Source of the DNA: Methylotenera sp.
GTDB taxonomy: Bacteria; Pseudomonadota; Gammaproteobacteria; Burkholderiales; Methylophilaceae
NCBI GenBank assembly: GCA_044228245.1
Contig: JBGAVG010000005.1
Span: 5,557 to 69,556, forward strand
Direction of reading: 5' to 3'
Length of the DNA stretch: 64,000 nucleotides
Each line of letters begins with the position of its first letter. Position 1 is the stretch's first letter. The notes below the pieces were generated by a model. The model made no database searches, was not told where the DNA came from, and saw only the letters and a list, made by a program, of their open reading frames with translations. Of the stretch, positions 4,675 to 62,393 are shown one piece after another. Position numbers and translations under genes: made by a program.

Positions 4675-4720
4675 GCCCTGCAGCCCGCATGGATATTGCC
4701 TTGCAGGGCATCTAATTTTT
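4675..4720 (+). terminator. Hairpin plus T-run after the last cassette; member of the CCAATATCCATG hairpin family
   Basis: Stem GCCCTGCA (4675-4682) pairs with TGCAGGGC (4702-4709) around a 19-nt loop, followed by 6 nt and TTTTT (4716-4720). Same architecture, and about 80% identity, as 53821-53866. Confidence 0.45.
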
Positions 4721-4844
4721 CTTGGCTTTTGTGTCTTTTTGGGCTTGCGCCCTCTCGCAATTAAGCCTATGCTGGATTTATGCCAGTTATGAACGATGGT
4801 GTTCAGTTCGCCGCCATGTTTGTATATTCTCGCAAGGAGCTAAC

Positions 4845-5081
4845 ATGAAAATTGAAATCAGTGAAGATATCAAAGCATTAGCGACCCTTTGCAAGCATGA
4901 TCTTGCCTGCCTGAAATCAGAAAATCATCCGTTATGTAAAGTACAGGATTGCGTCGACGGCAAAGTGCATTTTATTGAGTGCAAAGACCATAATCCTTGC
5001 GTGTATAAAACATCGTTTGGATACGGGCATGTTTGCGGCTGCCCGGTAAGAAAGGAAATCTACAACAAATATAAAATATAA
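4845..5081 (+). CDS. Small cysteine-rich hypothetical protein (78 aa, 9 Cys)
   Basis: The ATG at 4845 is preceded by AGGAG: MKIEISEDIKALATLCKHDLACLKSENHPLCKVQDCVDGKVHFIECKDHNPCVYKTSFGYGHVCGCPVRKEIYNKYKI. AT-rich, and I recognise no family. Confidence 0.5.
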   Translation: MKIEISEDIKALATLCKHDLACLKSENHPLCKVQDCVDGKVHFIECKDHNPCVYKTSFGYGHVCGCPVRKEIYNKYKI

Positions 5082-5132
5082 CGCCCGCAAGCGTTGCTTC
5101 GCCCACTCTGTCGAGCTTCATAGAACAGCAAC

Positions 5133-5678
5133 ATGACGCGCATTCACAGCTTTGAGCCCATTGCGGATGAAAACGCAGAGATACTGATTCTTGGCAGCAT
5201 GCCGGGACGCGCATCGCTGGCCGCCGGACAATATTATGCGCATGGCCAGAATACTTTCTGGCGCATCATTTGCCATCTGCTTCAGCTTGATATTGCATCT
5301 ACCTATGAGGCAAGAACTCAGGCGCTAAAGTCAGCCAGAATTGCGCTTTGGGATGTGCTGCACTCATGCAGGCGGGAAGGCAGCCTGGATGCGATGATTG
5401 AGCGCGATACGCAGATAGCCAACGATTTTAAGACATTCTTCCAAACGCACAATAAAATCACGCATGTATTTTTTAACGGCGCCAAGGCCGAGGAATATTT
5501 CTTGCGCCATGTGCTGAAAAATATCAACAATAACCCCATCAGTTTTACGCGTTTGCCTTCAACAAGCCCGGCACATGCCGCGATGTCGTTTGAGCAAAAA
5601 CTCAGCGCCTGGAGGGCTATTGAGGCCATCGTGCAAAACTTTGATCATGGCCCGCTAAGTTTGGCAGTTAGCGCGTAG
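5133..5678 (+). CDS. DNA-deoxyinosine (hypoxanthine) glycosylase, UDG superfamily
   Basis: 181 aa with LILGSMPGRASLAAGQYYAHGQNTFWRI and a C-terminal LPSTSPAHA, typical of family-6 UDG/HDG-like enzymes (from memory). Confidence 0.65.
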   Translation: MTRIHSFEPIADENAEILILGSMPGRASLAAGQYYAHGQNTFWRIICHLLQLDIASTYEARTQALKSARIALWDVLHSCRREGSLDAMIERDTQIANDFKTFFQTHNKITHVFFNGAKAEEYFLRHVLKNINNNPISFTRLPSTSPAHAAMSFEQKLSAWRAIEAIVQNFDHGPLSLAVSA

Positions 5679-5771
5679 AGAATAAACAGCTGATGAAAAG
5701 AGCCGTACAAACGCTGCAAATAATTCAACCTTCCAGTTCTATTTTCACCGGTTTAGTTTTAAACTAGCCGC

Positions 5772-6425
5772 ATGAAAACTCCTTTTATTTTATCTTCCGC
5801 CCTGGCCATATACGCCGCAATTGTTGCGCATGAGGCCGATATTGAATCGCTAGACCGCGCGATTGGCGATGGCGACCATTACATCAACATGAAACGCGGC
5901 AGCGAGATGATTGCGGGCATGTATAACGAACTGCTGCCGCTGCCGCCGGAAGACGCGCTGCAAAAAATCAGCATGAAGCTGCTCAGCACTATCGGCGGGG
6001 CTTCGGGGCCATTGTTTGCGAGCTTTTTTATGGGCATGTCCAAATACCTGAAAGAGCACCACGCCAAAATCAACGAAACCAATATGCACCTAGAAACTGC
6101 AGCCGCTTTTGCCTATGGGGTGCAGAGCATGATGATGCGCGGCAAATCCAACGTGGGTGAAAAAACCATGCTGGATGTGCTGGTGCCTGTTTCTACCACA
6201 TTCACCACGATGGCAGCACAAGGCAAACCGGTTGCCGAGATATGCGCCGCTGTAAAAAGCGCTGCCGATAAAGGGCTGGAATACACGCGCAACCTGCTTG
6301 CCACCAAGGGCCGCGCTGCGGGCTTGGGTGAACGTGCGATTGGCCATTTAGACCCCGGCGCGAAAAGCTGCCAGGTGATGACGCATACGGTCTGTGATTT
6401 GGTTTTGAAAGAGATTAAACAATGA
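5772..6425 (+). CDS. dhaL: Dihydroxyacetone kinase subunit L (ADP-binding)
   Basis: 217 aa with the DRAIGDGDHYINMKRG motif (D-x-x-x-G-D-G-D-H-G type). It overlaps dhaK by 4 nt. Confidence 0.8.
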   Translation: MKTPFILSSALAIYAAIVAHEADIESLDRAIGDGDHYINMKRGSEMIAGMYNELLPLPPEDALQKISMKLLSTIGGASGPLFASFFMGMSKYLKEHHAKINETNMHLETAAAFAYGVQSMMMRGKSNVGEKTMLDVLVPVSTTFTTMAAQGKPVAEICAAVKSAADKGLEYTRNLLATKGRAAGLGERAIGHLDPGAKSCQVMTHTVCDLVLKEIKQ

Positions 6426-7423
6426 AAAAATTTATCAATTCGACTGACGCTTTGTTAAAAGAAAGCCTCACCGGCTTTGGTCAAGCGCATGCCGATTTAG
6501 TCCAGGTACATTTCGAACCCGCCTACGTTACCCGCGCCAAACCGGCGCAAAATAAAGTCGCCATTGTTTCCGGCGGCGGCTCAGGGCACGAGCCGTTACA
6601 TGCGGGCTACATCGGCTATGGCATGCTCGATGCCGCCTGCCCCGGCCAGGTGTTTACCTCGCCCACGCCAGACCAGATGCTGGCTGCTGCCGAAGCGGTG
6701 CATGCAGGAAAGGGCATTTTGTTTATTGTGAAGAACTATGCCGGCGATGTGATGAATTTTGAAATGGCCGCGGAAATGCTGCCATTTGACCATGCCACCG
6801 TGCTCACCAGCGACGACTGCGCCGTGGTCAACAGCACCTACACCACCGGCCGCCGCGGCGTTGCAGGCACAGTGATTGTCGAAAAATGCGTTGGCAGTCT
6901 GGCAGAAACCGGCGCCAGCTTGCACGCCTGCCAGTTACTTGGCAACAAAGTGAATGCCCGCACCGCCAGCATTGGCGTGGCTTTAACCAGCTGCACCGTA
7001 CCTGCTGCAGGCCGCCCAACCTTTGACATCAGCGACAGCGAACTGGAAATGGGCGTAGGCATTCATGGCGAGCCGGGACGCAGGCGCGAAGCCATGCGCG
7101 AGGCAGATTCGATCGTGGGTGACTGCGTTGCCGCCATTCTGGCAGATCTGAAAACAACCCTGGAAAACGATACTTCAAGGGATATCCTGCTGCTCGTCAA
7201 CGGCCTCGGTGCGACCCCGCTCATGGAGCTCTACCTCATCTACAACACCGCGGCGAAGCTGCTGGGCGATGCAGGGTTGAATATATCGCGTAGCCTGGTC
7301 GGCAACTACACCACGGCCATCGACATGGCAGGCGCTTCCATCACGGTTTGCCTGCTGGATGATGAAATCAAGCAGCATTGGGATAGCCCCGTGCATACGC
7401 CGGCGCTACGCTGGGGGTGTTAA
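6422..7423 (+). CDS. dhaK: Dihydroxyacetone kinase subunit K
   Basis: 333 aa with VSGGGSGHEPLHAGYIGYGMLDAACPGQVFTSPTPDQM, the DhaK signature. Confidence 0.85.
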   Translation: MKKFINSTDALLKESLTGFGQAHADLVQVHFEPAYVTRAKPAQNKVAIVSGGGSGHEPLHAGYIGYGMLDAACPGQVFTSPTPDQMLAAAEAVHAGKGILFIVKNYAGDVMNFEMAAEMLPFDHATVLTSDDCAVVNSTYTTGRRGVAGTVIVEKCVGSLAETGASLHACQLLGNKVNARTASIGVALTSCTVPAAGRPTFDISDSELEMGVGIHGEPGRRREAMREADSIVGDCVAAILADLKTTLENDTSRDILLLVNGLGATPLMELYLIYNTAAKLLGDAGLNISRSLVGNYTTAIDMAGASITVCLLDDEIKQHWDSPVHTPALRWGC

Positions 7424-7636
7424 GGGCACTTCTATAAATTCACTTTTTGGGCGCATTACTTTGTTGCGCGGTTTTTTGGTTTCGGCCGCTACGCTTAACA
7501 TTGGCTTCGCCAATGTTAGCCTGCACCGCAACTGGCGTTGTCGCAACCTCGCTGTATAGCCCATACTATCTCGGCTCCTGCGTTCCGTGCGCCTCGTACT
7601 ACATCCCAAACCCTGTATTTATAGAAGTGCCCTTAA
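7420..7636. mobile_element. MITE-like element (217 bp) with perfect 20-bp terminal inverted repeats
   Basis: TTAAGGGCACTTCTATAAAT at 7420-7439, with its exact reverse complement at 7617-7636. Internal hairpin GCTTAACATTGGC-TTC-GCCAATGTTAGC (7493-7520). The internal 65 nt are homologous to 62420-62490 (inverted). Confidence 0.75.
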
Positions 7637-10390
7637 ATCTTTACTAAAAACAGTCTTCCAAAGCGCCAATACAGCTGCCTGCTGTTTTTCAAGTTCAGCC
7701 GATTTTACCTTTGCCGCTTGCGCCTGCAGTTTTGTGGCGTGAATCAGTTTGCGGTATTGCCTGTAGGCGTCCGCTACTTCTTTCGCCAGGTTTTTATTAA
7801 TAATATTCAATTCGCCCAGCACTTTTAATAAGCCAATATTACCAATGTTTTCAGTGAGTTGCGGATATTGTCTTGCGTGCGCCAGCACCAGATACTGCAC
7901 CAGAAACTCCACATCAATAATGCCGCCCGCGCTGTGTTTTACATCAAACCAGTCTTTTTCAAAACGCTGTGCCGCACGCATTTTCTCGCGCATGGCCATG
8001 ACGTCGGCTTTCAATTTCTCTATATCGCGCGTTTGCGTCATCACTTCAAAACGAATGGCATCGAAAGCCTTGCCAATACTGACATCCCCTGCCACAAAGC
8101 GGGCACGAGTAATGGCCTGATGCTCCCAAACCCAGGCCTTATGGAGTTGATAATCGCGAAATGCTTCTATGCTGCTTACCAGCAAGCCGCTATTGCCATC
8201 CGGACGCAGCTGCAAATCGGTTTCATACAGCAGCCCCGCATTGGTCACGCTGTTAAACCAGCTGTTGATGCGCTGCGCAAAGCGCGCATAGTTTTCTGAA
8301 GCATCAGGATGATCATCGTCCTTAGCATTTTCATGCGCGGCATCATAAAGAAAAATTATATCCAGATCAGACAGATAACCCAGCTCCTTGCCGCCCAGCT
8401 TGCCGTAGCCAATGACCGCGAACCTGGGCGTTTCGCAATGCCTGAACTTGAGCGATTGCCAGATCGTTTGCAGACTCACTTGCAGAATGAGGTCGGCCAG
8501 CGCGCTCAAATAGTCCGACAACGTTTCCAGAGTTAGCCTGCCCGCCACATCTTGCGCCGCGAGGCGCAAGATTGCAGCCTGCTTGAAATGGCGCATGGCG
8601 TCCATTTGCGCTTCGGTATCCCCTTGCAATTGCTGCATGCTCTCGTTGAGTTCTTCCTGCATTCTGGCGAAATCAGGCGGTGCATATAAGTTTCGCGTAT
8701 CCAGCAGTTCATCCAGCAAAATGGGATGCGCCGCCAAATACTGCGCCAGCCAGGGGCTGGCCGCGCATAGCTTAATCACCAGATGCAGCGCCTCCGGATA
8801 CTCGGCCAGCAGGGCCAGATAACTCGCACGGCGGCAGATATTCTCCAGCAGATTGATCGTGCGCAACAGTGCGATATCTGCATTTTTCTCCTGCCCGGAT
8901 TGCTTAATCACCAGTGGCATCAGGCAATCAAAGCGTTGGCGGCTTAATTCTGGCAGCTGTTGATAACGGCTGCTGGCCCTGAGCATTTGCAGCTGCTGCA
9001 GAACTTGCGACGCATTGCCAAATCCCACATTTGTCAAGGCTTGCAGGGCAGCATCATTCTCTAGCGCGCCTTGCCATACGGCCGTTTCCTGCGCGGTTTG
9101 TTGCTGGCTCTGTTCGCTATCGCTGTCATCGTTAAACGTTGCGTCAAAATGCTGCTGTACCAGGCCACGGTGGCAGTTGAGCGCCATGAGAAACTCTGTC
9201 CAGCTGGCGTAGTTCATGGCGTGGGCGATGCGCACTTTTGCCTCGTCGGTTTTAGGCAAATCCTGCGTTTGCCGATCTTCCACATACATCAGGCGATGTT
9301 CCAGATTGCGCAAAAACACGTAGGCTTCAGTCAGTTCCACAACCGTTTTTTCGGACAACAGCTTTTTGTTTTGCAACAGATTCAACACCGCTAATGTAGG
9401 CCGAATTTGCAAGCTTATATCGCGCCCGCCGCGAATCAGCTGGAACACTTGGGCGATAAATTCTATCTCGCGGATTCCGCCCCGCCCTAGCTTGATATTA
9501 TCCTGCAGCCCTTTTTGTGTCACATCGCGATGAATTTGCAGTTTCAGGTCGCGCATGCTCGCAAGCGCATTGTAATCGAGATACTTTCTAAAAACGAACG
9601 GCCTGAGAAGCGCATGGATATTGGCCTGCGGCCCGGCAACCACACGGCCTTTAATCCATGCGTAACGCTCCCATTCGCGGCCGTTATTCTGGTAATACTC
9701 TTCCAGCGCGTCCAGATTCGAAACCAGCGCGCCCTCGCTGCCAAACGGCCGCAACCGCATATCCACACGAAACACAAAGCCGTCTTCGGTAATTTCATCC
9801 AGCGCCGCAATAAGTTTTTTGCTGAGGCGCGCAAAAAAATCCTGATTGCTGATGGGACGTTCGCCCTGTGTCGCGCCTTCATTCTCATAGGCAAAAATCA
9901 AGTCAATGTCGGACGACACATTGAGCTCACCGCCGCCCAACTTGCCCATGCCGATCACAATCAGGCCTTGCGGATGCCCCTGCGCGTCCACCGGCTGGCC
10001 ATAGGTCTCCACCTGCCAGGCATTCAGGTAATCGATTGCCGTGCTAATCGTGCATTCCGCGAGCTGGGAAGTCGTATTCATCACCTCCTGCAAATCAGCC
10101 AAGCCATTTAAGTCGCGACAGATCGTGCGCACCAATACACGCTGCCTGAGCTTTCTTAATGCCTTTTTTAAGGTATTTTCATCACTTATTTGTTGGTTTG
10201 CCAGAAATTGTTGCATTTCTGCCAACCCACACGAAACCTCCAGATTGTCTAGCAGATCTTCGAGCAGGCCGGCATCGTTAGCAAGCAATCTGCGTGCAAA
10301 TGGGCTGCAAACTTCCAGCCTGTGCAGACAAGAAGTCTGCAATGGTGTTAATGCACGGTTTTTGGCGATTTCAGACAGTGTTTGCATCAT
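7619..10390 (-). CDS. glnE: Bifunctional glutamine synthetase adenylyltransferase/adenylyl-removing enzyme
   Basis: 923 aa with two nucleotidyltransferase halves (GMGKLGGGELNVSSDIDLIF and GYGKLGGKELGYLSDLDIIF). Confidence 0.9.
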   Translation of the reverse strand: MMQTLSEIAKNRALTPLQTSCLHRLEVCSPFARRLLANDAGLLEDLLDNLEVSCGLAEMQQFLANQQISDENTLKKALRKLRQRVLVRTICRDLNGLADLQEVMNTTSQLAECTISTAIDYLNAWQVETYGQPVDAQGHPQGLIVIGMGKLGGGELNVSSDIDLIFAYENEGATQGERPISNQDFFARLSKKLIAALDEITEDGFVFRVDMRLRPFGSEGALVSNLDALEEYYQNNGREWERYAWIKGRVVAGPQANIHALLRPFVFRKYLDYNALASMRDLKLQIHRDVTQKGLQDNIKLGRGGIREIEFIAQVFQLIRGGRDISLQIRPTLAVLNLLQNKKLLSEKTVVELTEAYVFLRNLEHRLMYVEDRQTQDLPKTDEAKVRIAHAMNYASWTEFLMALNCHRGLVQQHFDATFNDDSDSEQSQQQTAQETAVWQGALENDAALQALTNVGFGNASQVLQQLQMLRASSRYQQLPELSRQRFDCLMPLVIKQSGQEKNADIALLRTINLLENICRRASYLALLAEYPEALHLVIKLCAASPWLAQYLAAHPILLDELLDTRNLYAPPDFARMQEELNESMQQLQGDTEAQMDAMRHFKQAAILRLAAQDVAGRLTLETLSDYLSALADLILQVSLQTIWQSLKFRHCETPRFAVIGYGKLGGKELGYLSDLDIIFLYDAAHENAKDDDHPDASENYARFAQRINSWFNSVTNAGLLYETDLQLRPDGNSGLLVSSIEAFRDYQLHKAWVWEHQAITRARFVAGDVSIGKAFDAIRFEVMTQTRDIEKLKADVMAMREKMRAAQRFEKDWFDVKHSAGGIIDVEFLVQYLVLAHARQYPQLTENIGNIGLLKVLGELNIINKNLAKEVADAYRQYRKLIHATKLQAQAAKVKSAELEKQQAAVLALWKTVFSKDLRALL

Positions 10391-10476
10391 TTTTTTAAGG
10401 TAATATGGCGTTTGGCAATTTAGTTACATCTTACATTATTCATCAATATTAATAGCGTTTTGGGGAGTGCAGCAGC

Positions 10477-12453
10477 ATGTCAATTGAATCGGTTCTTCAT
10501 GAAAATCGCATTTTTGAACCCAGCGATGCGTTTAAACAACAAGCCACCGTATCTGGCATGGCGGCCTATAACGCTTTGTGCGCAGAAGCCGCTGCCGATT
10601 ATGAAGGATTTTGGGCGAAACTGGCGCGCGAGTTATTGATTTGGCACAAACCCTTTACAAAAACCCTTAACGACAGCAACGCGCCTTTTTACAAATGGTT
10701 TGAAGATGGCGAACTGAATGTTTCAGCCAACTGCCTCGACAGGCACTTGAACACCATCCCCAATAAAACCGCGATTATTTTTGAGGCTGACAATGGCGAC
10801 AGCAAAAAAGTAAGTTATAAAGAGCTATATCACCAAGTCTGCCAGTTCGCGAATGGCCTGAAAAAACTGAATCTCAATCTCGGCGACCGCGTCATCATCT
10901 ATCTTCCGATGGGCATCGAGGCTGTCGTAGCCATGCAAGCCTGCGCGCGTATCGGGCTTACCCACAGCGTGGTATTCGGCGGCTTTTCAGCCAAAAGTCT
11001 GAATGAACGCATTATTGATGCAGGCGCAAAAGCTGTGATTACTTCAGATGGCCAATTCCGCGGCGGCAAAACCTTGCCACTCAAACAAGCGGTGGATGAA
11101 GGCATTGCCATGGGCGGTTGCGACAGCATTCAACAAGTCGTGGTGCTGAAAAAAACCGGCCAGGAAGTTACCTGGAATGGACACAACATCTGGTGGCATG
11201 ACCTGATTGGCGGCTGCGCAGACACCTGCGAGCCTGTGATGGTGAATGCAGAACATCCCTTATTTTTGCTTTATACGTCAGGCTCCACAGGCAAGCCCAA
11301 GGGCGTGCAGCATTCATCCGCGGGCTACCTGCTGCATGCCATGAACACCATGCGCTGGACATTCGACATTCACGCCAATGATGTTTTCTGGTGCACCGCC
11401 GATGTGGGCTGGATTACCGGCCACACTTACGTGGCTTATGGGCCATTGGCGATGGGCGCGACGCAAGTAGTGTTTGAAGGCATTCCCACCTACCCTCACG
11501 CCGGGCGCTTCTGGCAGACGATTGAAAAGCATCAAGTATCGATTTTCTATACCGCACCCACGGCCATTCGCTCGCTCATTAAAGCTTCCGAAACCACGCC
11601 GGAAGTGCATCCTAAAAATTACAATCTAAGCAGCCTGCGTTTATTGGGCTCGGTGGGCGAACCCATCAACCCGGAAGCGTGGATGTGGTACTTTGAGAAC
11701 GTAGGCGGAAGCCGCTGCCCGATCGCTGATACTTTCTGGCAAACCGAAACCGGCGGCCATGTGATCACCCCGCTGCCGGGCGCTACCGCGCTGGTGCCCG
11801 GCTCATGCACGCTGCCTTTCCCAGGCATTGATATTGATGTGGTGGACGAAACAGGCAAGGACGTGCCCTGGGGCACCGGTGGTTTGCTTGTCATTAAAAA
11901 ACCGTGGCCAGCCATGATACGCACCATCTGGAATGATCCTGGGCGCTTTGTGAAAAGCTATTATCCGGCTGATTTAGGCGGCAAGATATATCTGGCGGGC
12001 GATGGCGCCGTACGCGATGCGGAAACCGGCAACTTCACCATTATGGGACGTATTGATGATGTGCTGAATGTGTCAGGCCACCGTTTGGGCACGATGGAAA
12101 TTGAATCTGCACTTGTAGCGAACCACTTGGTGGCAGAAGCTGCTGTCGTCGGTAAACCGCATGATATTAAAGGCGAATCTGTCGTGGCTTATGTGGTGCT
12201 AAAAGGTGCCCGACCACAAGGCGAAGAAGCCAAAAAAATCGTCGCCGAACTGCGGAACTGGGTCGGCAAAGAAATTGGCCCGATCGCCAAGCCGGACGAA
12301 ATCCGCTTTGGCGACAACTTGCCCAAAACCCGCTCCGGCAAGATTATGCGCAGGCTGTTACGCAGCCTGGCCAAAGGCGAAGAAATCACTTCGGACATTT
12401 CCACACTGGACAACCCCGCCATACTTGAACAACTAAAAGAAGTAGTGAAATAG
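10477..12453 (+). CDS. acs: Acetyl-CoA synthetase
   Basis: 658 aa with the AMP-binding motif [12 protein letters not shown] and C-terminal [12 protein letters not shown]. Confidence 0.95.
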
Positions 12454-12463
12454 CGAATGTAAA

Positions 12464-12506
12464 GCCTGCCGCCATTCATAGCACGAATACCGGCAGCTTT
12501 TCTTTT
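12464..12506 (+). terminator. Weak candidate terminator after acs
   Basis: CTGCCG (12466-12471) pairs with CGGCAG (12491-12496), followed by CTTTTCTTTT. The stem is short and the loop is long. Confidence 0.25.
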
Positions 12507-13261: not shown

Positions 13262-13526
13262 AATACCTCCTATCAAACATAGCAAAAAAGTCGACGGTAC
13301 AGAGAGGGATAAATAATGTAACGAGTAGTTACTTTGGACGTACCGCTAAACTATACATATTACCGAACCAGTCTACCAAGAGTAAATAAGTGCTAGCACG
13401 TATAGGCGACCCTTGCATACATGCACAAATGTAGCATGGCCATCTCTCCGAATTCCCGCTTGCGCAAGAATGAAGAACAAGGGCGTATTTCGGGTAAAAT
13501 AGCGTTTTTCCTATTTCAAACCCGCC

Positions 13527-15092
<1,566 letters not shown>

Positions 15093-15098
<6 letters not shown>

Positions 15099-15144
15099 CT
15101 CAACCATAATTTACCAAATGAAAACAAGTTTTCAAACGTTAGGT
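15093..15144 (+). repeat. Orphan attC-like site (52 bp) overlapping the prfC stop codon
   Basis: GCCTAAC-TCAACC...GTTTTCAAAC-GTTAGGT. The right end shares 13 identical nt (TTCAAACGTTAGG) with attC 4, and the left end shares CTAAC..TCAACC. The central GC palindrome is missing. Confidence 0.4.
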
Positions 15145-15540
15145 TTTATTGCTAGCTTGTTAGCACTGGGCCTCTCAATGATTCTTTGGCCAGATTTGTT
15201 TCTTTTTGCAAAAAAAGTATTTTTACCAGAATGGGCAGAGTTACTGCCAAGCCCAATAGATGCAGCAAAGTATCTTGCTTTTTTATGCCTAATCCCTGTT
15301 ACTATAACAAGCAAAACAACACTAGAAGCACTTAAAAATATATCTAAAGTAATACTTATTGCTGCAATATTGCCAACACTTATTTTTGTCTTCCGGGTCA
15401 ATCCTTATGAGAAGTATTTTGTTCATAACACTCTATTTCAATATATTTTCGTGATCCTTTGGAACTGCCTTTTACCAGCTGTAATCTTGCTAGTAATAAA
15501 GTTATTTTACGAAAAAATTAGTTCACATATAGCAGATTAG
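15118..15540 (+). CDS. AT-rich hypothetical multi-pass membrane protein
   Basis: 140 aa from the ATG at 15118: MKTSFQTLGFIASLLALGLSMILWPDLFLFAKK..., with about four hydrophobic segments. Composition is much more AT-rich than the neighbouring genes. Confidence 0.5.
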   Translation: MKTSFQTLGFIASLLALGLSMILWPDLFLFAKKVFLPEWAELLPSPIDAAKYLAFLCLIPVTITSKTTLEALKNISKVILIAAILPTLIFVFRVNPYEKYFVHNTLFQYIFVILWNCLLPAVILLVIKLFYEKISSHIAD

Positions 15541-15875
15541 TTTACGTAATCCGCCGCATGGTTTTGACTTTCATCCCCTTTGCCGCGCCTTCGGCTTGAG
15601 CGGCAGATGGCAGGCGGCGAGGACTGTTTGAGCGCTGAAAGCGCGAGTTCCGCAGCCGCCCCAGATGCGGCGCTAAGACCGAAGGATGAAGCGGCAGCGG
15701 GGCAGCCTTCTTTTTGGATACTTTTTCTTGGCTAAGCAAGAAAAAGTATCTCGCCAGTCGCGCGAGAGCGACTTGTTTCAAAAGACACTGGATTCCGATT
15801 TTCATCGGAATGACGGCAAAACCACCTACCCTGCAGCCCAATATCCATGCGCCTTCCAGAGCCATTATTTTCAAA
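15541..15875. repeat. Hairpin-dense non-coding element
   Basis: Contains a perfect 14-bp stem GATACTTTTTCTTG/CAAGAAAAAGTATC (15717-15750) and an 8-bp stem ATTCCGAT/ATCGGAAT (15792-15811). Also a 6-bp stem AGTCGC/GCGACT (15756-15773), a long imperfect hairpin (15613-15660), and one copy of CCAATATCCATG at 15838-15849. Confidence 0.6.
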
Positions 15876-16433
15876 TCAAGCCGCTTCAAACGCCTCGCAT
15901 AGCTGGCTGAGCAACTGGCCAAAAATCGGCAACACTTCTTCTTTGCTGTGTGGGCTGTCATCATCGGTACCGGCAATTACAAAGCTCACCGTGAGTTTGT
16001 CCAGATTCTCACGGAACTCCATCCAGTGCTCTGCCTCAGCCTCGCCTATCAGCTTGAATTTATTGAAACCTGATTCGATGATTTCCACCAGCTCAGCCTC
16101 CGGCAAACCTGCGAACAAGGTTTTAGCAATGATGATTTGTGCTGCAGTGATATCCGGCGTGATGTTTTCTTGAGCCAATGGCGCAGTAAAAAACGCGAAT
16201 GCCAACAACGCATAGGCCTGATACACGCTTAGCATATCAAAGTTATTTTTATGCTCGAATGCGGGCTGCCTATCCGCCACCTGAATCGCCTTGAATGTCA
16301 CGTAACTGGACAGATAATGCGCGGAATCCAGCGGGTCATATTCATCCAAATTGACATTGGGTTTAGCGCCATCATCTAAGGTTTCCGCTAGACATAAAGC
16401 GTGCAGTAAGGTGAGTCGTTTTGAGTAGTCCAT
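15876..16433 (-). CDS. Hypothetical protein (185 aa, acidic)
   Basis: Uninterrupted ORF with plausible composition. No motif recognised. Confidence 0.55.
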   Translation of the reverse strand: MDYSKRLTLLHALCLAETLDDGAKPNVNLDEYDPLDSAHYLSSYVTFKAIQVADRQPAFEHKNNFDMLSVYQAYALLAFAFFTAPLAQENITPDITAAQIIIAKTLFAGLPEAELVEIIESGFNKFKLIGEAEAEHWMEFRENLDKLTVSFVIAGTDDDSPHSKEEVLPIFGQLLSQLCEAFEAA

Positions 16434-25984: not shown

Positions 25985-27109
25985 TCACTGAATTTTATTA
26001 CAAAAAATCACCAACTTAGATGCAAGGTCTGCTTGCTTTGCCAATTGTTGTGCCTGTTGCCGCGCATAATGCCGTAACGCAGGCAAAGCATTCAAAAAAT
26101 GGTTCCAGGCCGTTTCTGGCATATGCCCTGCAGACCAATACCGGTGCGCCTCGCAGACCACCTGTTTTGCATCAGAATGCGCATAAAACACCTCCAGAAA
26201 CGCATCCAGTTTTTTCATGTGAGTGTTTTCGGTTTGAAAATACGGCTGCCAGATAAACGGCTTGCCCGCCCAGATGGCACGGATCCAGCTATCTTCGCCA
26301 CGTACAAAGTTAATATCACAGACGGCCAGTAATTGGTCGTAATCTTGATGCGACAGAAAAGGCAGCACATGCAAATTGAGGTTTTTGTGCGTCAAGTTCT
26401 CGCCTGCCGCAACGGAGTCTTTACCAAAAAAACGGGCGATTTGCAGCAGATCACTGCTGGCAGGCACGTAACAATCGACAGTTTGCCGGCCACTGGCCAT
26501 GACCGTGAGCAAATCATGGACCGGCGCATGCGGGTAGTAAAACAGTGAAACTTTTAAATACGCATCGTGAGTCAGATTCAGGCGTTTCCAGAACGCGTTC
26601 TGCAACTGTATATCGTTGGCAAGCAATTGATTCTGCGCAACAATATTTCGCTCCCGGATCAGGCCGCCGGTCGCCTCGGTAAAACCTGGAAAGTAAAAAT
26701 GCCGCGTTAGATTGTGCTGTGGCCGCGGTGAAGGTTTTGCATGAAAATCCCCCACCCATGGCTCGGCGGATAAATATTCCAGATTAACCCATTTGGACCT
26801 TTTCTGTGTCATCGCATCTAAATAAGCGGGCGGCAACTCGCAGCCAAAAGCCTCAATCACCACTTCTGCCGCCTGATCAAACATAGTGCCTGCATGCCAT
26901 GAAACAATCGTGATGTCTTGAATAACCTGCTTTTGCAGCGTCACATCTAATGCAGGAATAACCCGCTTAGCGACGCTTAAATCATCAATCCAAAGCCGAA
27001 CCTGCAAGCCATGCTCCATGTGCAGCTGCCTTGCCAGCCGCCAGCAGACGCCGATGTCCCCAAGGTTATCGACAATCTTGCAGAAAATATCCCACCTGAG
27101 TTCGTGCAT
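25985..27109 (-). CDS. earP: EF-P arginine-32 rhamnosyltransferase EarP
   Basis: 374 aa. N-terminal WDIFCKIVDNLGDIGVCWRLARQLHMEHG matches the EarP/DUF2331 signature. Adjacent to an efp carrying R32. Confidence 0.85.
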   Translation of the reverse strand: MHELRWDIFCKIVDNLGDIGVCWRLARQLHMEHGLQVRLWIDDLSVAKRVIPALDVTLQKQVIQDITIVSWHAGTMFDQAAEVVIEAFGCELPPAYLDAMTQKRSKWVNLEYLSAEPWVGDFHAKPSPRPQHNLTRHFYFPGFTEATGGLIRERNIVAQNQLLANDIQLQNAFWKRLNLTHDAYLKVSLFYYPHAPVHDLLTVMASGRQTVDCYVPASSDLLQIARFFGKDSVAAGENLTHKNLNLHVLPFLSHQDYDQLLAVCDINFVRGEDSWIRAIWAGKPFIWQPYFQTENTHMKKLDAFLEVFYAHSDAKQVVCEAHRYWSAGHMPETAWNHFLNALPALRHYARQQAQQLAKQADLASKLVIFCNKIQ

Positions 27110-30634: not shown

Positions 30635-31956
30635 GGTGTAGCTCCCTTCATGTCAGGTGTATCACTCTTCATCTCCCCCTGTTGAACCATATTTTGATTA
30701 GCAAGCCTCGCCAGCACCCCGGACAAAGAGGCCTCCGAGTCAATCAGAAACTGGCCTGATGCCACCACCTCTTCGCCTTCGGATAAACCGCCCAATATCT
30801 CGGTATAGCCATCACGCTCCTGTCCAGTCTCGATTTCTACAGGACGATAACCATGCGCTTCTTTCACAATTACAACGTTGCGTTTGCCTGTCGCGATGAT
30901 GCTTTCGGCCGGCGCTGATAAGGCTTCGTGGGTTTGCCCGGTAAACTTGACATTGGCGTACATGCCTGGTCGAAGAAGATTGCGCTTGTTAGGCAACTCA
31001 ATACGCACCTGCAATGTTCTTGAAACTTCGTTCAAGATTGGATAGAGGTAGCTCACTTTGCCCTTGAATACTTCACCAGGCAGGCTTTGCAACTGCACTT
31101 CAGCAGCCAATCCCGGCTTCAGGCGGGCTGCATCGCGTTCGGGGACTTCTGCAATCAGCCAAACTTGAGATAAGTCAGATGTTTGCATCAACGAGCTGCC
31201 CGTCATCAGCTGTCCGCCTTCACGCACCCCGAGTTCTGTCAGCACACCGGAGGCGGGTGCATAAACGCCAAAGCGTGGGCTGGATTTACCCGTTTTAGAG
31301 ATTCCAGCTATTTCGCCCTCTGACATGCCAAGCAATTTCAGCCGATGACGTGCCGCTTGCTTGAGCGAATTGTCGCCATCAACATCGTTTAAGGTAAGCA
31401 ATGCCAAATACTCTTGTTGCGCAACCAATAATTCCGGCGCATAGACTTCTGCGATTTTCTGCCCCTTGCTCACAGGGTCGCCCACCGCGCGCACAAACAA
31501 CCTTTCTACAAAACCTGGGATACGCGTTTGCACCACGTAGAAACGTCGCTCATCCGGCTCAATACGACCAATGGCCGACAGCGATTCGCCAAAGCTTCTG
31601 GTCGCAACTTTCTCCAGCCGAATTCCCAGATTCTGTGTGGTTTGTGACGAAATGGTAACAGCAGCGGCTTCACTGTCTTTATTAGCTTCACCGCCACCTT
31701 CATCAGCATACTTGGGCTCCAGTTGCATGTCCATAAATGGCGATTTACCTGGCTTGTCAAATTTTTGACCAGGCACCATCGGGTCATACCAGTAAAGCAC
31801 AATCTTGCCGCTTTTGTCTTGCACTACGCCGTTATTCGTAATCTCTTGTGTTGGCATAGCCTCCTGCTTGGAGACTGATAATTTCTCCCAGGCAACCCAG
31901 CCAGCCGCTGCGGCCAACACAATGGACCCTATCAGGATGAGATGGATACGTTTCAT
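30631..31956 (-). CDS. cusB: RND efflux periplasmic adaptor, CusB family
   Basis: 441 aa. [29 protein letters not shown] is the heavy-metal adaptor N-terminal motif. 4-nt overlap with cusA. Confidence 0.85.
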
Positions 31957-49704: not shown

Positions 49705-50313
49705 CTACTCACCCACCACATCAACACCCTTGGGTGGTGTAAACAGAAAAGTGGAATCTTGCAGTACAGGATTTCGCTCTACTTCGTTAAATGTAATGTG
49801 AGTAATGTGGTTAAAACTGTCGTACAGCTCCATTTTGCGCAGCTTGTCAGCCTTAAACCCGAGCAGCACGCGGTCAAAGCCGCTTTCTTTATCCTTGGGT
49901 AATGCCAGCACCCATGTCAACCCATCCTTGCGGGTGGCATTTTTTAGCGTAAAGCTTTTTTCCACATCTTCGCCGCCCGCCAGCATGGCAGCGGGGCTTG
50001 AGCCCAGCGTTTTGCTCAACTCCCGAATCGTGACTTGCTGCAGCTCAGTATCGAATAAAAACACCTGTTTTCCATCGCTCACGATCTGCTGCTCGTAGGG
50101 TTTTTTGTAATCCCAGCGGAATTTATTCGGGCGCTGCAGTTGCATGGTGCCTTCTACTTCCTGCTCCTTGCGCCCCTGCTTGTCATTCACCACCTGGCTG
50201 AACTGCGCCCGCATGGTATTGGTATTATTGAAAAAGTCGCGCAGACTGGATACACCATCCGCCATGGCCAGATTGGCGAATATAACCAAAAAACCAAATA
50301 ATAATTTATTCAT
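49705..50313 (-). CDS. lolA: Outer-membrane lipoprotein carrier LolA
   Basis: The start at [18 protein letters not shown] (ATG 50313) overlaps the ftsK stop. ...FSQVV...RFRWDY... is LolA-like. Confidence 0.8.
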
Positions 50314-53792: not shown

Positions 53793-53820
53793 CCAAAGCT
53801 AGATAATCAAAAAATAGCTA

Positions 53821-53866
53821 GCCTGCAAGCCGCATGGATATTGGCCTGCAGGCCCATGCTTTTTTA
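53821..53866 (+). terminator. Hairpin plus T-run after trxB; member of the CCAATATCCATG hairpin family
   Basis: Stem GCCTGCA (53821-53827) pairs with TGCAGGC (53847-53853) around a 19-nt loop containing CATGGATATTGG, followed by 6 nt and TTTTTT. Confidence 0.45.
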
Positions 53867-53896
53867 TTCTGGCAAGCAGGGTTAATATCTCACATC

Positions 53897-54436
53897 ATGG
53901 GCGCGGACGAGAAAAAACCGGAGGATTTACACCTCTTCCACGAGGCGGTGAAAGACGCGCGGCCGCTGAATATTGAGCCTATTCACACCCCCAAAGCGCG
54001 CCCCAAACCCATCGCCAAGCACTTTTTGCGCGACGAAAAACAAGCCCTGCGCGATTCACTTAGTGATGACTACATTCCCGCGCACGAGCTGGAAAGCGGC
54101 GAAGAGCTGCTTTACCTGCGCGAAGGCCAATCACCCAACATTCTAGGCAAACTGCGCCGCGGCTTTTGGGTGGTGCAGGCGCAAATCGATTTACACGGCT
54201 TGGTGACAGATGAAGCGCGCCTGTACGTGGCGGATTTCTTAAATGGGTGCAAAAAACGTAATATCCGCTGCGTGCGCATTGTGCATGGCAAAGGCTTAGG
54301 CTCACGCAACCGCGAACCCGTGCTTAAACACAAACTGCGCAGCTGGCTCATGCAACGTGACGAAGTGATTGCCTATGCCCAAGCCAAGCCGGAAGACGGC
54401 GGCAGTGGCGCGGTGATTGTGTTGTTGAAGGCTTAA
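53897..54436 (+). CDS. Smr-domain protein
   Basis: Start chosen at MGADEKKPED, because the upstream extension begins in the hairpin loop. C-terminal Smr domain DLHGL...VRIVHGKGLGS...VLK..L..WL. Confidence 0.75.
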   Translation: MGADEKKPEDLHLFHEAVKDARPLNIEPIHTPKARPKPIAKHFLRDEKQALRDSLSDDYIPAHELESGEELLYLREGQSPNILGKLRRGFWVVQAQIDLHGLVTDEARLYVADFLNGCKKRNIRCVRIVHGKGLGSRNREPVLKHKLRSWLMQRDEVIAYAQAKPEDGGSGAVIVLLKA

Positions 54437-54724: not shown

Positions 54725-54749
54725 TACCAGCACCATTGGAGGAATATAC

Positions 54750-55409: not shown

Positions 55410-55417
55410 TTCAAACT

Positions 55418-55897: not shown

Positions 55898-55911
55898 ACC
55901 TTTTTCCTTTA

Positions 55912-57759: not shown

Positions 57760-57761
57760 AG

Positions 57762-58235: not shown

Positions 58236-58936
58236 GATGCTGATCCTTTGTTTTTTTCATGCTCAAATAAGGCTTCCAGCAGTGCCAAATCTTGCGGATA
58301 AGTGATTTTCAGATTGCGCAGGTCACCTTGTACCAGTTTTGGCTGCAGGCCAAGCGCCTCAATCGCTTCAGCTTCATCCGTCGGCATACCGGCATAGCGC
58401 TCCAAAGCCATTTTCAGTGTTGCATAGCGAAACATCTGCGGCGTCTGCGCTTGCCATAAACCGGCTCTCGGAATCGTTTTATTCACGCGATTATCCTGAT
58501 TGCCCTGCTTGAGCGTATCAGCCAAAGGCAGCGCCAGCAAACCGCCCACCTCATCGTTTTCGAGCGAGCTCAGCAAGTTATCCAGCAACCGGTTTGTCAA
58601 ACCGGGCCGCGCGGCATCGTGCACCAGAATCCAGTCATCGTCATTCACCTGCGACGTGATGGCCTGCAAGGTATTCAGCACGGTCCCGCTTCTGCTGTCA
58701 CCGCCGGTGTAATGCAGTTTAAGCTTGCTGGCAGGCTCCAGCGTCAGGCTGCGCCAAAACCCATCGTCAGGATTCAAGGCCACATGGATATTGGTAATGC
58801 GCGGATGGTTAAAAAACACCTGTATGGAATGTGAAATGATTGGCTTGCCGGCCAATGGCAGATACTGCTTGGGCAGGGCGTTAGCCATACGGTTGCCAAT
58901 GCCTGCAGCTGGAATGATTACATGAAAAAACGCCAT
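58226..58936 (-). CDS. ispD: 2-C-methyl-D-erythritol 4-phosphate cytidylyltransferase
   Basis: Start probably at [24 protein letters not shown] motif. Overlaps ispF. Confidence 0.9.
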
Positions 58937-58988
58937 GCGTAAGTTTAGCATGGCGTTTAATGTTTTAGTCTAAAGCAGACATCTGTGC

Positions 58989-60188
58989 TTAATGCTCTGC
59001 GGTTGCGTTAATTTTATGTATAGACAAATCTGCGCCGTTAAATTCTTCCTCGGCATCCAGGCGAATACCAACCAATTGTTTAAGCACCCCATAAACAATC
59101 GTGCCGCCAACAAGCGCAACAATCACACCCAAACCTGTGCCCAAGAGTTGCGACATAAAACTCACGCCACCAAGGCCGCCCAAGGACTTAAGCCCGAAAA
59201 TACCAGCTGCAATGCCGCCCCATGCGCCGCACAGGCCATGCAATGGCCACACACCCAGCACATCATCTATTTTTAAGCGGTTCTGCGTCATGGTAAAAGC
59301 CCATACAAACAGGGCTCCAGCCACTGCGCCGGTCGCCAATGCGCCTAGCGGATGCATGACATCTGAACCGGCACATACTGCCACCAAGCCCGCCAGCGGA
59401 CCATTGTGCACAAAACCCGGGTCATTTTTACCCATGACTAAAGCCGCTAAGGTACCGCCAACCAAAGCCATGAGCGAGTTAACAGCCACCAGGCCGGAAA
59501 TGCCCTGGATGCTTTGCGCGGACATGACATTAAAGCCAAACCAGCCTACAGTGAGTATCCATGCGCCTAACGCAAGGAACGGGATATTGGACGGCGGATG
59601 TGCGTGAATCCTTCCATCTACACCATACCGACCACTACGGGCGCCCAGTAAAAGCACGGCGGTTAGCGCTATCCAGCCGCCCATGGCATGCACCACAACG
59701 GAGCCGGCAAAATCATGGAATTTGGCGCCAAAAGCGGCGTTGAGCCAGTCTTGAAAGCCATGCTGATTATTCCACGCGATACCCTCAAAAAATGGATAGA
59801 TAAACCCGACCAGTAAAAATGTCGCAGCCATTTGCGGATTAAACTTTGCGCGCTCGGCGATGCCGCCGGAAACAATGGCCGGGATAGCTGCGGCAAAGGT
59901 AAGCAGGAAGAAGAATTTAACCAGGTCATAGCCATTTTTCGCAGCAAGCATCTCTGCACCGCTGAAAAAATTAACTCCATAGGCAATGCTATAGCCAATA
60001 AAAAAATATGCCACAGTCGACACTGAAAAATCGACCATGATTTTTACCAAGGCGTTGACCTGGTTTTTACTGCGGACGGTACCTACTTCTAAAAATGCGA
60101 AACCCGCATGCATGGCCAGCACCATGATGGCGCCAAGCAGCACAAATAACACGTCATTCGCAGAAACTAATGCTTCCATTAAAATCAC
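58989..60188 (-). CDS. amt: Ammonium transporter
   Basis: 399 aa with about 11 TM helices and the motifs DFAGSVVVHAMGG and VWPLHGLCGAWG. Confidence 0.9.
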   Translation of the reverse strand: MILMEALVSANDVLFVLLGAIMVLAMHAGFAFLEVGTVRSKNQVNALVKIMVDFSVSTVAYFFIGYSIAYGVNFFSGAEMLAAKNGYDLVKFFFLLTFAAAIPAIVSGGIAERAKFNPQMAATFLLVGFIYPFFEGIAWNNQHGFQDWLNAAFGAKFHDFAGSVVVHAMGGWIALTAVLLLGARSGRYGVDGRIHAHPPSNIPFLALGAWILTVGWFGFNVMSAQSIQGISGLVAVNSLMALVGGTLAALVMGKNDPGFVHNGPLAGLVAVCAGSDVMHPLGALATGAVAGALFVWAFTMTQNRLKIDDVLGVWPLHGLCGAWGGIAAGIFGLKSLGGLGGVSFMSQLLGTGLGVIVALVGGTIVYGVLKQLVGIRLDAEEEFNGADLSIHKINATAEH

Positions 60189-60253
60189 TCCCCAAAATCA
60201 AGATTAAATTTAATTTTTTATTATGGTTGGCTTAAAAACTGACGTCAGAAATA

Positions 60254-60269
60254 AGCAAAATTCAAGCCA
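60254..60269 (-). promoter_or_regulatory. Candidate sigma-54 promoter for amt
   Basis: The minus strand reads TGGCTTGAATTTTGCT (TGGC-N7-TTGC, GG-N10-GC spacing), about 66-81 nt upstream of the amt start. Confidence 0.55.
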
Positions 60270-60321
60270 TTGGCTTGGAGGATTGATTTTAAAGGATTTT
60301 TATAAATAGAAAATAATATGA

Positions 60322-60358
60322 TGCACCTTTTGTGTGCATTCAAAAGTGCATTGCACCA
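60322..60358 (-). promoter_or_regulatory. Candidate NtrC-type enhancer sites
   Basis: TGCACCTTTTGTGTGCA (60322-60338) fits TGCACC-N5-TGGTGCA loosely. Overlapping TGCATTCAAAAGTGCA (60335-60350) and GTGCATTGCAC. Confidence 0.45.
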
Positions 60359-60381
60359 TAACAAAGCAGATATAGCTAATT

Positions 60382-61056
60382 TTACAGCATACTTACAGTA
60401 TGACTGTTCAGCACAAACTTCTCTGCCTCCGGATTGCCTGCCCAAAAATGGAAGAATTCACGCACCACAACCAGAAACAGACGGCGGTTTTTCTTTACTT
60501 CAAATAGCGGCAGTGTCGCATCAACCGCTGTTCGGTAGACCTTGTTGTCCTTATCGGGCGCATCCCTAAGCCGTACCAGCAGGATTTTGGCAAGCTTCAG
60601 ACGCGTGTCAATCAGCGCCTGTTCCGCATTCTCGTTGCGCAGCGCCTTGGCATAGCCTTTTAGCGCCCAACTGTCGGTCGTGCCAAATTTCTCCTCATCC
60701 ACGCTATGCCACAACTCGCTTAAACTGACATGCACCGGCAGCCAGTCGATGGGCAAAGTGTCTTTAGTTGCATTTTTACTTAGCAGTGCAACCGCTTTTA
60801 TATCATTGATCCAGAAAGGATAATACTCACGTGCGATGACCAGGCTTTCCGGCCAGTCGTCCTCACCAACGGTATCCATCAGCGCTTCGATGACATCACG
60901 ATATACGCGGCCATTAAGCTCTTTGTTGGCTAATAATGGCATTAATTTGTTCAGGAAATTAATCCGCGGCACAAAGGTATCCGGGCCAAACCCTTTAGTG
61001 GTCAGCAGCTTGATGTACACTTCTAGCGCTTGTTGCTCACGTGGCTGAATCGTCAT
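60382..61056 (-). CDS. Hypothetical protein (224 aa)
   Basis: Clean ORF with helical-looking composition. No motif recognised. Confidence 0.55.
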   Translation of the reverse strand: MTIQPREQQALEVYIKLLTTKGFGPDTFVPRINFLNKLMPLLANKELNGRVYRDVIEALMDTVGEDDWPESLVIAREYYPFWINDIKAVALLSKNATKDTLPIDWLPVHVSLSELWHSVDEEKFGTTDSWALKGYAKALRNENAEQALIDTRLKLAKILLVRLRDAPDKDNKVYRTAVDATLPLFEVKKNRRLFLVVVREFFHFWAGNPEAEKFVLNSHTVSML

Positions 61057-61179
61057 GAAATTTCCACTTAACTAATATTTTTAATTCTACGGCACAATCT
61101 ATTGAAAAATATAATAAAACTCTCATATAGTATCAGTACATGCATATTGTGCACATCACAAATAAAAAAGTAAATCATC

Positions 61180-61494
61180 ATGTTTGAAGTCACCCTGCTA
61201 GCACTGCTCCTGCTCGCCACCTGGTTCTGGCTGGACAGCATCTCCAAGCGAGAAATCGCCATCCACTTTGGCCGTGAGCTGGCAAACCGCTGCAATCTGC
61301 AACTGCTGGATGAAACGGTAGCCTGCAATATGATCCGGCTGGGACGCGATAGCCGCGGCCATGCACAACTGTTGCGTTTTTACGAGTTCGAAGTCAGCGC
61401 CAGCGGCGCAGAACGCATGCAATGCAATCTGCAACTGCTCGGCAAACAGCTACAGACTTGGCATATTCCGCCTTATATCCAGCCGCTTCAATAA
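61180..61494 (+). CDS. DUF3301-like small membrane-anchored protein
   Basis: 104 aa. N-terminal TM, then REIAIHFGRELANRCNLQLLDETVA...RFYEFEVSASGAERMQCNLQLLG. Family assignment from memory. Confidence 0.6.
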   Translation: MFEVTLLALLLLATWFWLDSISKREIAIHFGRELANRCNLQLLDETVACNMIRLGRDSRGHAQLLRFYEFEVSASGAERMQCNLQLLGKQLQTWHIPPYIQPLQ

Positions 61495-61496
61495 CC

Positions 61497-62393
61497 ATGC
61501 CCTATGTCGGAAGATTCGCACCCTCGCCCACCGGTCCACTGCATTTTGGTTCACTGGTAGCAGCAGTCGCAAGTTATTGCGATGCAAAAGCCAAAGATGG
61601 GAAATGGCTGCTGCGCATGGAAGACCTGGACAAACCACGCGAAGTGCAAGGCGCTGCCGACGGCATATTGCGCACTTTGGAGGCATTTGGCTTTGAATGG
61701 GATAGAGAGGCTTGGTATCAAAGCCAGCGCACAGAGTTTTACGAAAGTGCGCTGCAAATACTAAAAAACAAGGGACTGGCTTACCCATGCACCTGCAGCC
61801 GTAAAGAGATTGCAGATTCAGCCATCGCAAGCGGCATTGAAGGCGCGATATACCCGAAAACATGCTTGAACCATGCCCTGAAGACCAATATCCATGAGGC
61901 CTACAGAGCACTCACTTTAGATGAAAATATCGTCTTTCTGGATGAAATTCAAGGCGAAATCATACAAAATCTGGCGCGCGATGTCGGCGATTTTATTTTG
62001 AAACGGGCCGATGGTTTATTCGCCTACCAGCTTGCTGTGGTGGTGGATGATGCCGCACAAGGCGTTACCCACGTTGTGCGCGGCGCCGATTTACTTGATT
62101 CCACGCCACGCCAGATTTATTTGCAGCGGCTTTTGGGATACGCCACGCCGCACTACGCGCATGTACCGGTTGTCAGTAATGCAGCAGGCGAAAAACTCAG
62201 CAAACAGACCCTTGCCAAGCCAATATATATGCGCCCTCCAGGGCATGCATTATTTGATGCTTTAAGCTTTTTAGGCCAGCAGCCGCCAGCAGAAATAAAA
62301 AACGCCACACTGAATGAGGTATGGCAGTGGGCAATGACCAATTGGAGCATTTCCAATATTCCCAAACAGCGCGCAATCGTTTTTCACGATTAG
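61497..62393 (+). CDS. gluQ: tRNA glutamyl-Q(34) synthetase
   Basis: Start at MPYVGRFAPSPTGPLHFGSL, 2 nt after the upstream stop. KLSKQ motif. Truncated GluRS-like length (298 aa). Confidence 0.85.
   Translation: MPYVGRFAPSPTGPLHFGSLVAAVASYCDAKAKDGKWLLRMEDLDKPREVQGAADGILRTLEAFGFEWDREAWYQSQRTEFYESALQILKNKGLAYPCTCSRKEIADSAIASGIEGAIYPKTCLNHALKTNIHEAYRALTLDENIVFLDEIQGEIIQNLARDVGDFILKRADGLFAYQLAVVVDDAAQGVTHVVRGADLLDSTPRQIYLQRLLGYATPHYAHVPVVSNAAGEKLSKQTLAKPIYMRPPGHALFDALSFLGQQPPAEIKNATLNEVWQWAMTNWSISNIPKQRAIVFHD

Follow-up and report, generated by a model that had tools for sequence, protein, structure and literature searches.

DNA uptake sequences (DUS) and uptake signal sequences (USS) occur at a density of about one per kb, and to our knowledge sequence-specific uptake signals are known from two bacterial families only. 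Rickettsia palindromic elements (RPEs) are insertions of 100-150 bp that add a peptide segment, and HIP1 (highly iterated palindrome 1, GCGATCGC) is a cyanobacterial lineage-wide motif, over-represented in coding and non-coding DNA, for which there is no agreed mechanism. In terminators built from DUS or USS, the stem consists of two inverted copies of the signal (PMC1852404). A GT(A/G)G head and a GC-rich imperfect palindrome defined every repetitive extragenic palindromic (REP) element studied, and homologues of the REP-associated tyrosine transposase (RAYT) accompanied by abundant REPs were found in Gammaproteobacteria only, one horizontal transfer excepted (PMC2817692). Here we analyse a stretch of 64,000 nucleotides from Methylotenera sp. 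of the methanol-consuming Methylophilaceae (contig JBGAVG010000005.1, positions 5,557 to 69,556; hereafter the window), in which the 12-mer CCAATATCCATG forms the core of a dispersed hairpin element of about 39 nt. The element combines the anatomy, number and placement of a REP with two traits of an uptake signal, a family-wide exact core and in-frame copies inside genes. The robust part of our result is that it is a family-specific hairpin at the DNA level, that its intergenic copies are terminator-like, and that it changes in place, not by insertion.

By frequency, CCAATATCCATG is the top-ranking 12-mer within the window. Our recount gave the same positions as the first-pass annotation, namely five exact copies at 9613(-), 15838(+), 53833(-), 58783(-) and 61885(+), and a copy with one mismatch (GCAATATCCATG) at 4688(-). 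The over-representation claimed there stands as well, since the five copies compare with an expected count of 0.02 in dinucleotide shuffles and of 0.01-0.04 under Markov models of order 1 to 5. A profile made from the copies recognized eight family members in the window (the six above together with 62215-62252 and 26120-26159, E<0.02), four on each strand and three of them intergenic. Such numbers might be put down to chance, to a conserved peptide or to codon bias, and codon bias is indeed able to inflate oligomers: TGCTGGATGA, likely a codon-bias oligomer with putative L-L-D-E codons and a contrast to the hairpin motif, is found nine times against 0.18 expected, always on the sense strand of an open reading frame (ORF; sites 7353, 8709, 13978, 17001, 17418, 17844, 35434, 56018 and 61304). 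Against an artefact, however, speak the intergenic copies, a likeness that spans about 40 nt, the unrelatedness of the host proteins, and hundreds of copies in other genomes. The three exact coding copies lie on the sense strand in the common frame xCC-AAT-ATC-CAT-G, as first described, and it is this same 12-mer that encodes all three N-I-H tripeptides in the ORFs of the window (1.09 expected). This places the signal in the DNA rather than in the peptide, and the conserved-peptide explanation, named in the first-pass annotation as a way to refute selection on the motif, fails. Together, the counts, the scan of other genomes and the N-I-H coding rule out chance or artefact, to which we assign a negligible probability.

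The anatomy of the element was drawn by aligning 136 distinct copies, taken both from the window and from related genomes (DNA loci or contigs fetched from related genomes or assemblies are given L-numbers below), with the consensus taAAAAta.aTGCCCTGCAGaCCAATATCCATGCGGcTT.CAGgGCAt.taTTTt. Its arms, ATGCCCTGCA(G/A)(A/G)CC and GGCTTGCAGGGCAT, form an imperfect palindrome (ATGCCCTGCAG.CC / GG.TTGCAGGGCAT) around the almost invariant 11-nt loop AATATCCATGC, and a perfect-stem subfamily, CTGCAAGCC...GGCTTGCAG, attains a 14-bp stem. Intergenic copies carry an A-run on the 5' side and a T-run on the 3' side, both of which are missing from coding copies. The stem of 7-8 bp with a 19-nt loop that had been proposed earlier has to be revised, as the best copy of the window, after trxB, folds instead into a 12-bp stem with an 11-nt loop at -26.1 kcal/mol; folding energies range from -20 to -26 kcal/mol (copies at 4668..4719 and 53811..53864). 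Within the conserved block, a single column (between TT and CAG) is unconstrained amid neighbours that exceed 90% conservation, a pattern that looks like a recognition site rather than like decaying repeats. The arms alone are not over-represented, and a scan seeded on nothing but the arms returned 20 metagenome stretches, 12 of which contain the loop motif or a near variant of it, in either orientation.

We then scanned one genome per species across 185,579 species with the query CAGNCCAATATCCATGCGNNNNNCAG (20 specified bases). At least 111 stretches matched, and among the matches listed almost all are metagenome-assembled genomes (MAGs) of Methylophilaceae, comprising Methylotenera, Methylophilus and other family members. 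The few non-Methylophilaceae matches among those listed are mostly short contigs that may be mis-binned; those assigned to Methylococcales (L069), Prolixibacteraceae (L105) and Propionivibrio (L095) are probably binning errors, and the context of the element in L069 (+/-500 nt) is identical to a Methylotenera contig, L061. The window TrxB is 91-100% identical to its 120 best database homologues, whose named sources are Methylotenera, Methylophilus, Methylophilaceae or an unclassified proteobacterial MAG. No copy was present in the plasmid and phage collections, and in IMG/VR a single contig carries the element (L138, 58 kb, at 3718-3743), which may represent a prophage or else chromosomal DNA that was misclassified. 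The core variants CCAATAACCATG and CCAAATACTCATG occur in contigs of 35-49% GC (L142/L143 at about 10958-11008; L122, L132 and L135, with the lowest GC in L132 and L122), and they may be lineage 'dialects' of the element. Density varies with the sample: the window holds eight copies in 64 kb (one per 8-13 kb), loci fetched through TrxB hold five strong copies in about 189 kb (about one per 38 kb), and 23 extra exact cores were found beside ascertained copies in 787 kb (about one per 34 kb), from which roughly 80-250 copies per genome can be extrapolated. In the library of papers searched, a search for CCAATATCCATG met only unrelated eukaryotic primer lists, and a search for REPs, uptake sequences or competence in Methylophilaceae found nothing; the RAYT paper (PMC2817692) and the terminator/USS paper (PMC1852404) make no mention of the family.

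Where the copies lie was assessed with gene calls defined as ORFs of at least 150 aa. Among 145 strong copies, 109 are intergenic and 36 coding. Of the intergenic copies whose context could be classified, 47 of 84 (56%) stand between convergent genes, compared with 18% of background junctions; tandem genes account for 33 (background 66%) and divergent genes for four (background 16%), and 80 of the 84 face at least one gene 3' end. In tandem contexts, 23 copies are antisense to the genes and ten run in the same direction. The convergent excess and the A and T runs make the intergenic copies look like bidirectional terminators; they are a 3'-end feature, and they probably act in intrinsic termination in both directions. 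With ordinary bidirectional intrinsic terminators they have in common a GC-rich hairpin, an upstream A-run, a downstream T-run and a position at 3' ends and convergent junctions. Ordinary terminators, however, share structure and not sequence, whereas the element keeps a 29-nt block including the 11-nt loop family-wide, and unlike them it also lies inside genes, where the A and T runs are lacking. Copies occur singly; even the nearest neighbours are separated by 290-700 nt and enclose whole genes, and the ORFs between neighbouring copies are ordinary, unrelated genes. A small putative GIY-YIG nuclease ORF (L117, 460-763) lies between copies at 244 and 1387, and element copies also stand on both sides of several other short genes.

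The window contains three intergenic copies. The copy at 4668..4719 (-), with the core variant GCAATATCCATG (39 bits; RNA fold -20.2 kcal/mol), forms a hairpin with a T-run behind it and immediately follows the last cassette of an integron, and an identical element occupies the orthologous site in L027. The copy at 15820..15871 (+; exact 12-mer, 42.7 bits) is placed between the convergent ORFs 15073-15540(+) and 15876-16433(-) and has an orthologue in L036; its arms pair on the complementary strand only, via G-U pairs. The best copy, at 53811..53864 (-; 50 bits) after trxB, is flanked by both an A-run and a T-run, and its nucleotides 53831-53849 are identical over 19 nt to 9611-9629 in glnE, as had been noted before. 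The gene for an Smr-domain endonuclease is called from an ATG inside this element (CATGG), at 53834-54436 in the window and at 10993-11595 in L139-L141. Its true start is probably downstream of the called ATG, because the family match begins only at residue 26-30.

About a quarter of all copies are coding, and their host genes are conserved ones such as glnE, ispD, gluQ, fabD and polA. A Pfam check of about twenty coding copies placed them within domains or linkers of housekeeping genes; the hosts are PolA, FabD, HldE, CoaBC, NadC, CitG, Fmt, QueA, TrpD, KdsB, PrmC, a Mur ligase and GlnE for sense-strand copies, and EarP, a Type ISP restriction enzyme and a sigma-54 activator for antisense ones. 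The sense frame L-Q-x-N-I-H-A (xCC-AAT-ATC-CAT-G) is used by 19 of the 36 strong coding copies, and direct translation shows it to be the frame of the consensus without Cys, Trp or Met. In most coding copies the core is accompanied by the arms.

Within the window, the glnE copy (9592..9640, minus strand, sense; exact 12-mer, 35 bits) encodes A-N-I-H-A-L-L-R-P, with an AGG Arg codon at the place of CAGG in the arm consensus, and is kept in L027 and L036. The ispD copy (58769..58808, minus strand, sense; exact 12-mer, 14.4 bits), encoding T-N-I-H-V, consists of the core with weak arms only and is found also in L139-L141. The gene gluQ contains two copies. The one at 61869..61914 (plus strand, sense; exact 12-mer, 38 bits) has arms and core and encodes A-L-K-T-N-I-H-E-A-Y-R-A, and the degenerate one at 62215..62252 (plus strand; E=4.4e-4) encodes P-I-Y-M-R-P-P-G-H-A in another frame, with different partial copies at the same site in L142 and L146. 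Another degenerate copy, ATGCCCTGCAGACCAATACCGGTG..., lies antisense in earP (26120..26159, plus strand; E=5.5e-4 and 0.0066), and a full copy occupies the orthologous earP position in L099. The likenesses previously reported for these two degenerate sites, 17 of 18 positions between 61873-61890 and 26123-26140 and 21 of 25 between 62220-62244 and 15838-15862, hold on re-comparison. The list of weaker relatives thus stood in part: 62215-62252 and 26120-26159 are significant, the sites at 30851 (E=1.5) and 27001 (E=13) are at chance level, and that in lolA is doubtful. By direct reading, the latter (50209..50223, minus strand) shows a core with a 1-nt deletion, ACCAATA-CCATGCGG, and a weak arm, and it gave no profile-search match even at a cut-off of E=100.

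Coding copies mostly leave the length of their hosts unchanged. Compared with solved structures, IspD has no gap at the copy; GlnE has none either, in a region shorter than in E. coli; KdsB shows no gap, the query being shorter; and in FabD, likewise without a gap, QPNIHAGH replaces the QPSIVAGH of Burkholderia. At the second gluQ site the alignment is 1:1 in length with E. coli YadB, L144 and L051, all of which have unrelated sequence there. RPEs and in-frame miniature inverted-repeat transposable elements (MITEs) resemble the element as palindromic repeats lying in frame in genes, but gene length is unchanged in IspD, GlnE, FabD, KdsB and GluQ site 2, and the flanks are inverted A/T runs, not direct repeats; insertion of the MITE or RPE type was accordingly rejected, NadC with its 6-aa insertion matching the 5' arm being the exception.

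Orthologous sites allowed us to follow persistence and turnover. At trxB, the inner 23 nt of the terminator (cagaCORE...gttg) run one way in the window, L082 and L068 and the opposite way in L044 and L060, while the outer arms of the inverted copies keep their side-specific differences and the 15-nt core is invariant both ways. This pattern points to in-place inversion of the hairpin rather than re-insertion, and orientation differs at three independent orthologous sites. Across lineages fetched through TrxB, and so without regard to the motif, the trxB site is intact in that of the window and in L151, carries the variant CCAATAACCAYG in L142 and L143, is truncated in L146, is replaced by a new hairpin with arm remnants in L144 and L147, and is absent from L148-L150. 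At the first gluQ site, recognizable element-like sequence persists at the same site and in the same frame in six of seven TrxB-fetched lineages, four of which score 18-49.5 bits (L147 49.5, L151 41), although the encoded peptide varies; the copy is absent from the more distant L051, which was fetched by the motif scan. Conservation at third codon positions is 0.86-1.0 there against a gene mean of 0.64, over three columns only, and points towards constraint. In L078, an orthologous copy is decaying through point substitutions. A presence/absence comparison upstream of prfC met with flanks that share no homology.

These comparisons also bear on whether the element is read as RNA, that is, as a cis-regulatory or stabilizing hairpin or a small RNA whose loop is recognized on the transcript. 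Its stable hairpin at mRNA 3' ends and the preference for the sense orientation within genes would suit such a role. Stem covariation, however, is nil (68.3% of cells paired versus 68.2% in shuffles), and no Rfam match was obtained at the element, with gathering thresholds on the window and E<=1 on eight loci. Moreover, orientation is not fixed, tandem contexts are mostly antisense, and the loop is inverted between orthologues and yet invariant. The arms are conserved as sequence and not merely as structure, and the evidence points to an element read as DNA, not RNA. We consider an RNA-structure reading highly improbable, and RNA-level function is, like chance, effectively excluded.

Several other features were noted. 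An integron integrase (TIGR02249, E=1.7e-140) is encoded at 2-937 (-), and an apparent cassette array at 1072-4660 is closed by the copy at 4668-4719; a further 12-mer, CCTAACGTTTGA, occurring three times in the window, may belong to attC sites. That the element itself is an integron attC site was rejected, as its consensus has no R''/R' boxes (RYYYAAC ... GTTRRRY) and its copies are chromosome-wide, only one adjoining the integron at 2-4660. A second small hairpin family is seen near copies, as ATTCCGATTTTCATCGGAAT at 15792-15811 and as ATTCCCGC...GCGGGAAT(GAC) in L060, L068 and L084; we take the ATTCCGATTTTCATCGGAAT hairpin family to resemble the Neisseria dRS3 repeat (ATTCCC-N8-GGGAAT). Finally, CCATGTCATTGC is found at 13525, 24787, 56814 and 62976 (four times against 0.7 expected, with at most one mismatch), one copy overlapping the start codon of prfC.

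Given its anatomy, the element might be a mobile REP, a single-strand hairpin copied by an HUH enzyme, either a RAYT or a Rep-like nuclease nicking the loop. It is an imperfect palindrome of about 35-40 nt, with around a hundred copies or more per genome by extrapolation, it sits at 3' ends and convergent junctions in both orientations with a plausible role at terminators or mRNA ends, and it is kept across related genera as enterobacterial REPs are; its loop start AATAT presumably recalls the loop nick sites of rolling-circle origins. Unlike REPs, however, it has no GT(A/G)G head (the 5' flank consensus is AAAAta.A, with no GTAG or GTGG on either strand), its most conserved part is the loop whereas REPs conserve stem and head, and its copies form none of the clusters known as bacterial interspersed mosaic elements (BIMEs) or REP doublets (REPINs). 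Neither is it strictly extragenic, as the many in-frame copies in ORFs without added length attest. No RAYT-like ORF was seen in about 1 Mb of motif-selected DNA, where neither tblastn with an E. coli RayT query nor a regular-expression search for HUH and Y motifs gave a match, and RAYTs with abundant REPs are confined to Gammaproteobacteria in the survey cited above, one transfer excepted. We therefore rank an HUH-mobilized REP third and hold it to be distinctly improbable. HIP1, to which the element can also be compared, is unlike it an 8-bp perfect palindrome of very high density without a hairpin or terminator context.

The first-pass annotation had likened the motif to a DUS, which would make it a tag of self-DNA: a competence receptor would prefer motif-bearing DNA, and recombination would drive the motif into terminators and permissive frames. 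Much of that likeness is borne out. Like DUS and USS, CCAATATCCATG is a family-specific exact oligomer, over-represented on both strands, enriched in terminator-like hairpins and conserved family-wide with lineage variants such as CCAATAACCATG in lower-GC relatives. It works in either orientation, about a quarter of its copies are coding, with one preferred frame, in variable or pre-adapted segments and without indels (FabD QPSIVAGH -> QPNIHAGH), and motif-bearing genomes encode a type IV pilus ATPase and a pilin. Such drive accounts elegantly for the in-frame coding copies. An uptake sequence as such is nevertheless disfavoured. With one copy per 8-13 kb (window) or per about 35 kb (relatives), density is 10-30 times below that of DUS and USS, so that most fragments would be untagged; the palindromic arms in coding copies are not predicted by a receptor for a short motif; and in place of an inverted signal pair forming the stem, the element has one asymmetric core, located in the loop and enclosed by arms conserved in sequence. 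Nor does it match any known DUS or USS: in the window, each known 12-mer DUS occurs zero times, and the 10-mer cores and two USS 9-mers occur zero to two times. As reported above, the literature search found no competence or uptake sequence in Methylophilaceae. Likeness of the core to the sigma-54 promoter, DnaA-box and integration host factor (IHF) consensus and to the arm of the Neisseria AT-DUS was dismissed as weak. Overall, uptake-signal-like drive comes second in our ranking and is unlikely, if less so than a mobile REP.

Ranked above both is recognition of the element as DNA by a protein, and our best reading is that it is a Methylophilaceae-specific, protein-recognized dispersed hairpin of about 39 bp with a REP-like role, an interpretation that we favour tentatively and with somewhat less than even confidence. 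The two alternatives offered by the first-pass annotation, a protein-binding site and a REP-like element seeding gene conversion, are plausible as well. Under our best reading, intergenic copies would serve as bidirectional intrinsic terminators at gene 3' ends, chiefly between convergent genes, in a REP-like role, and the loop and inner stem would be the recognition site of a putative lineage-specific protein that may bind either the duplex or the extruded, single-stranded hairpin. Copies would be kept or renewed by length-neutral replacement or point substitution, together with inversion of the inner 23 nt, and no transposon-style insertion would be involved in their origin. Overwriting without change of length could proceed by template switching, with the self-complementary CTGCAG of the two arms as the anchor. 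Since change in place is length-neutral, complete copies would come to lie in tolerant reading frames. Recognition by a protein agrees with a constraint that differs between positions and with the indifference to orientation, as it does with the density and with the presence of coding copies in tolerant frames.

Several observations weigh against this interpretation. Neither a binding protein nor a copying enzyme came to light. About four of ten lineages have lost the element at trxB or retain it in degenerate form, so that single sites are dispensable, and the insertion in NadC means that not every coding copy is strictly length-neutral. The preference for the sense strand and a single frame also fits motif drive, and selection for binding would not by itself readily explain why complete arms are found inside genes. 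As to termination, the loop, at 11 nt, is longer than usual in an intrinsic terminator, and the function proposed for the intergenic copies is read from sequence.

The element has practical consequences for the study of an abundant environmental family. The hairpin repeat breaks short-read assemblies: the Logan contigs L002-L006, with identical trxB, end inside or just before it. Gene callers are misled as well, as with the Smr start. The element could serve as a taxonomic marker for binning and could help to flag binning errors. It also offers a defined 39-bp probe with which to search for a protein that reads it, to assay DNA uptake in cultivable Methylotenera and Methylophilus, and to map terminators. 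It falls outside every family tested, and there is a real chance of a new mechanism. That Methylophilaceae possess a third, independently evolved signal for uptake or self-recognition, in the form of a hairpin of about 29-39 bp whose drive rewrites housekeeping genes, or else an unknown enzyme that overwrites DNA length-neutrally, is a possibility that we regard as doubtful but worth taking seriously. The element joins uptake-like, length-neutral copies in reading frames with a REP-like terminator hairpin, and it would therefore either widen the range of uptake or drive signals or reveal a new route by which dispersed repeats are written into genomes.

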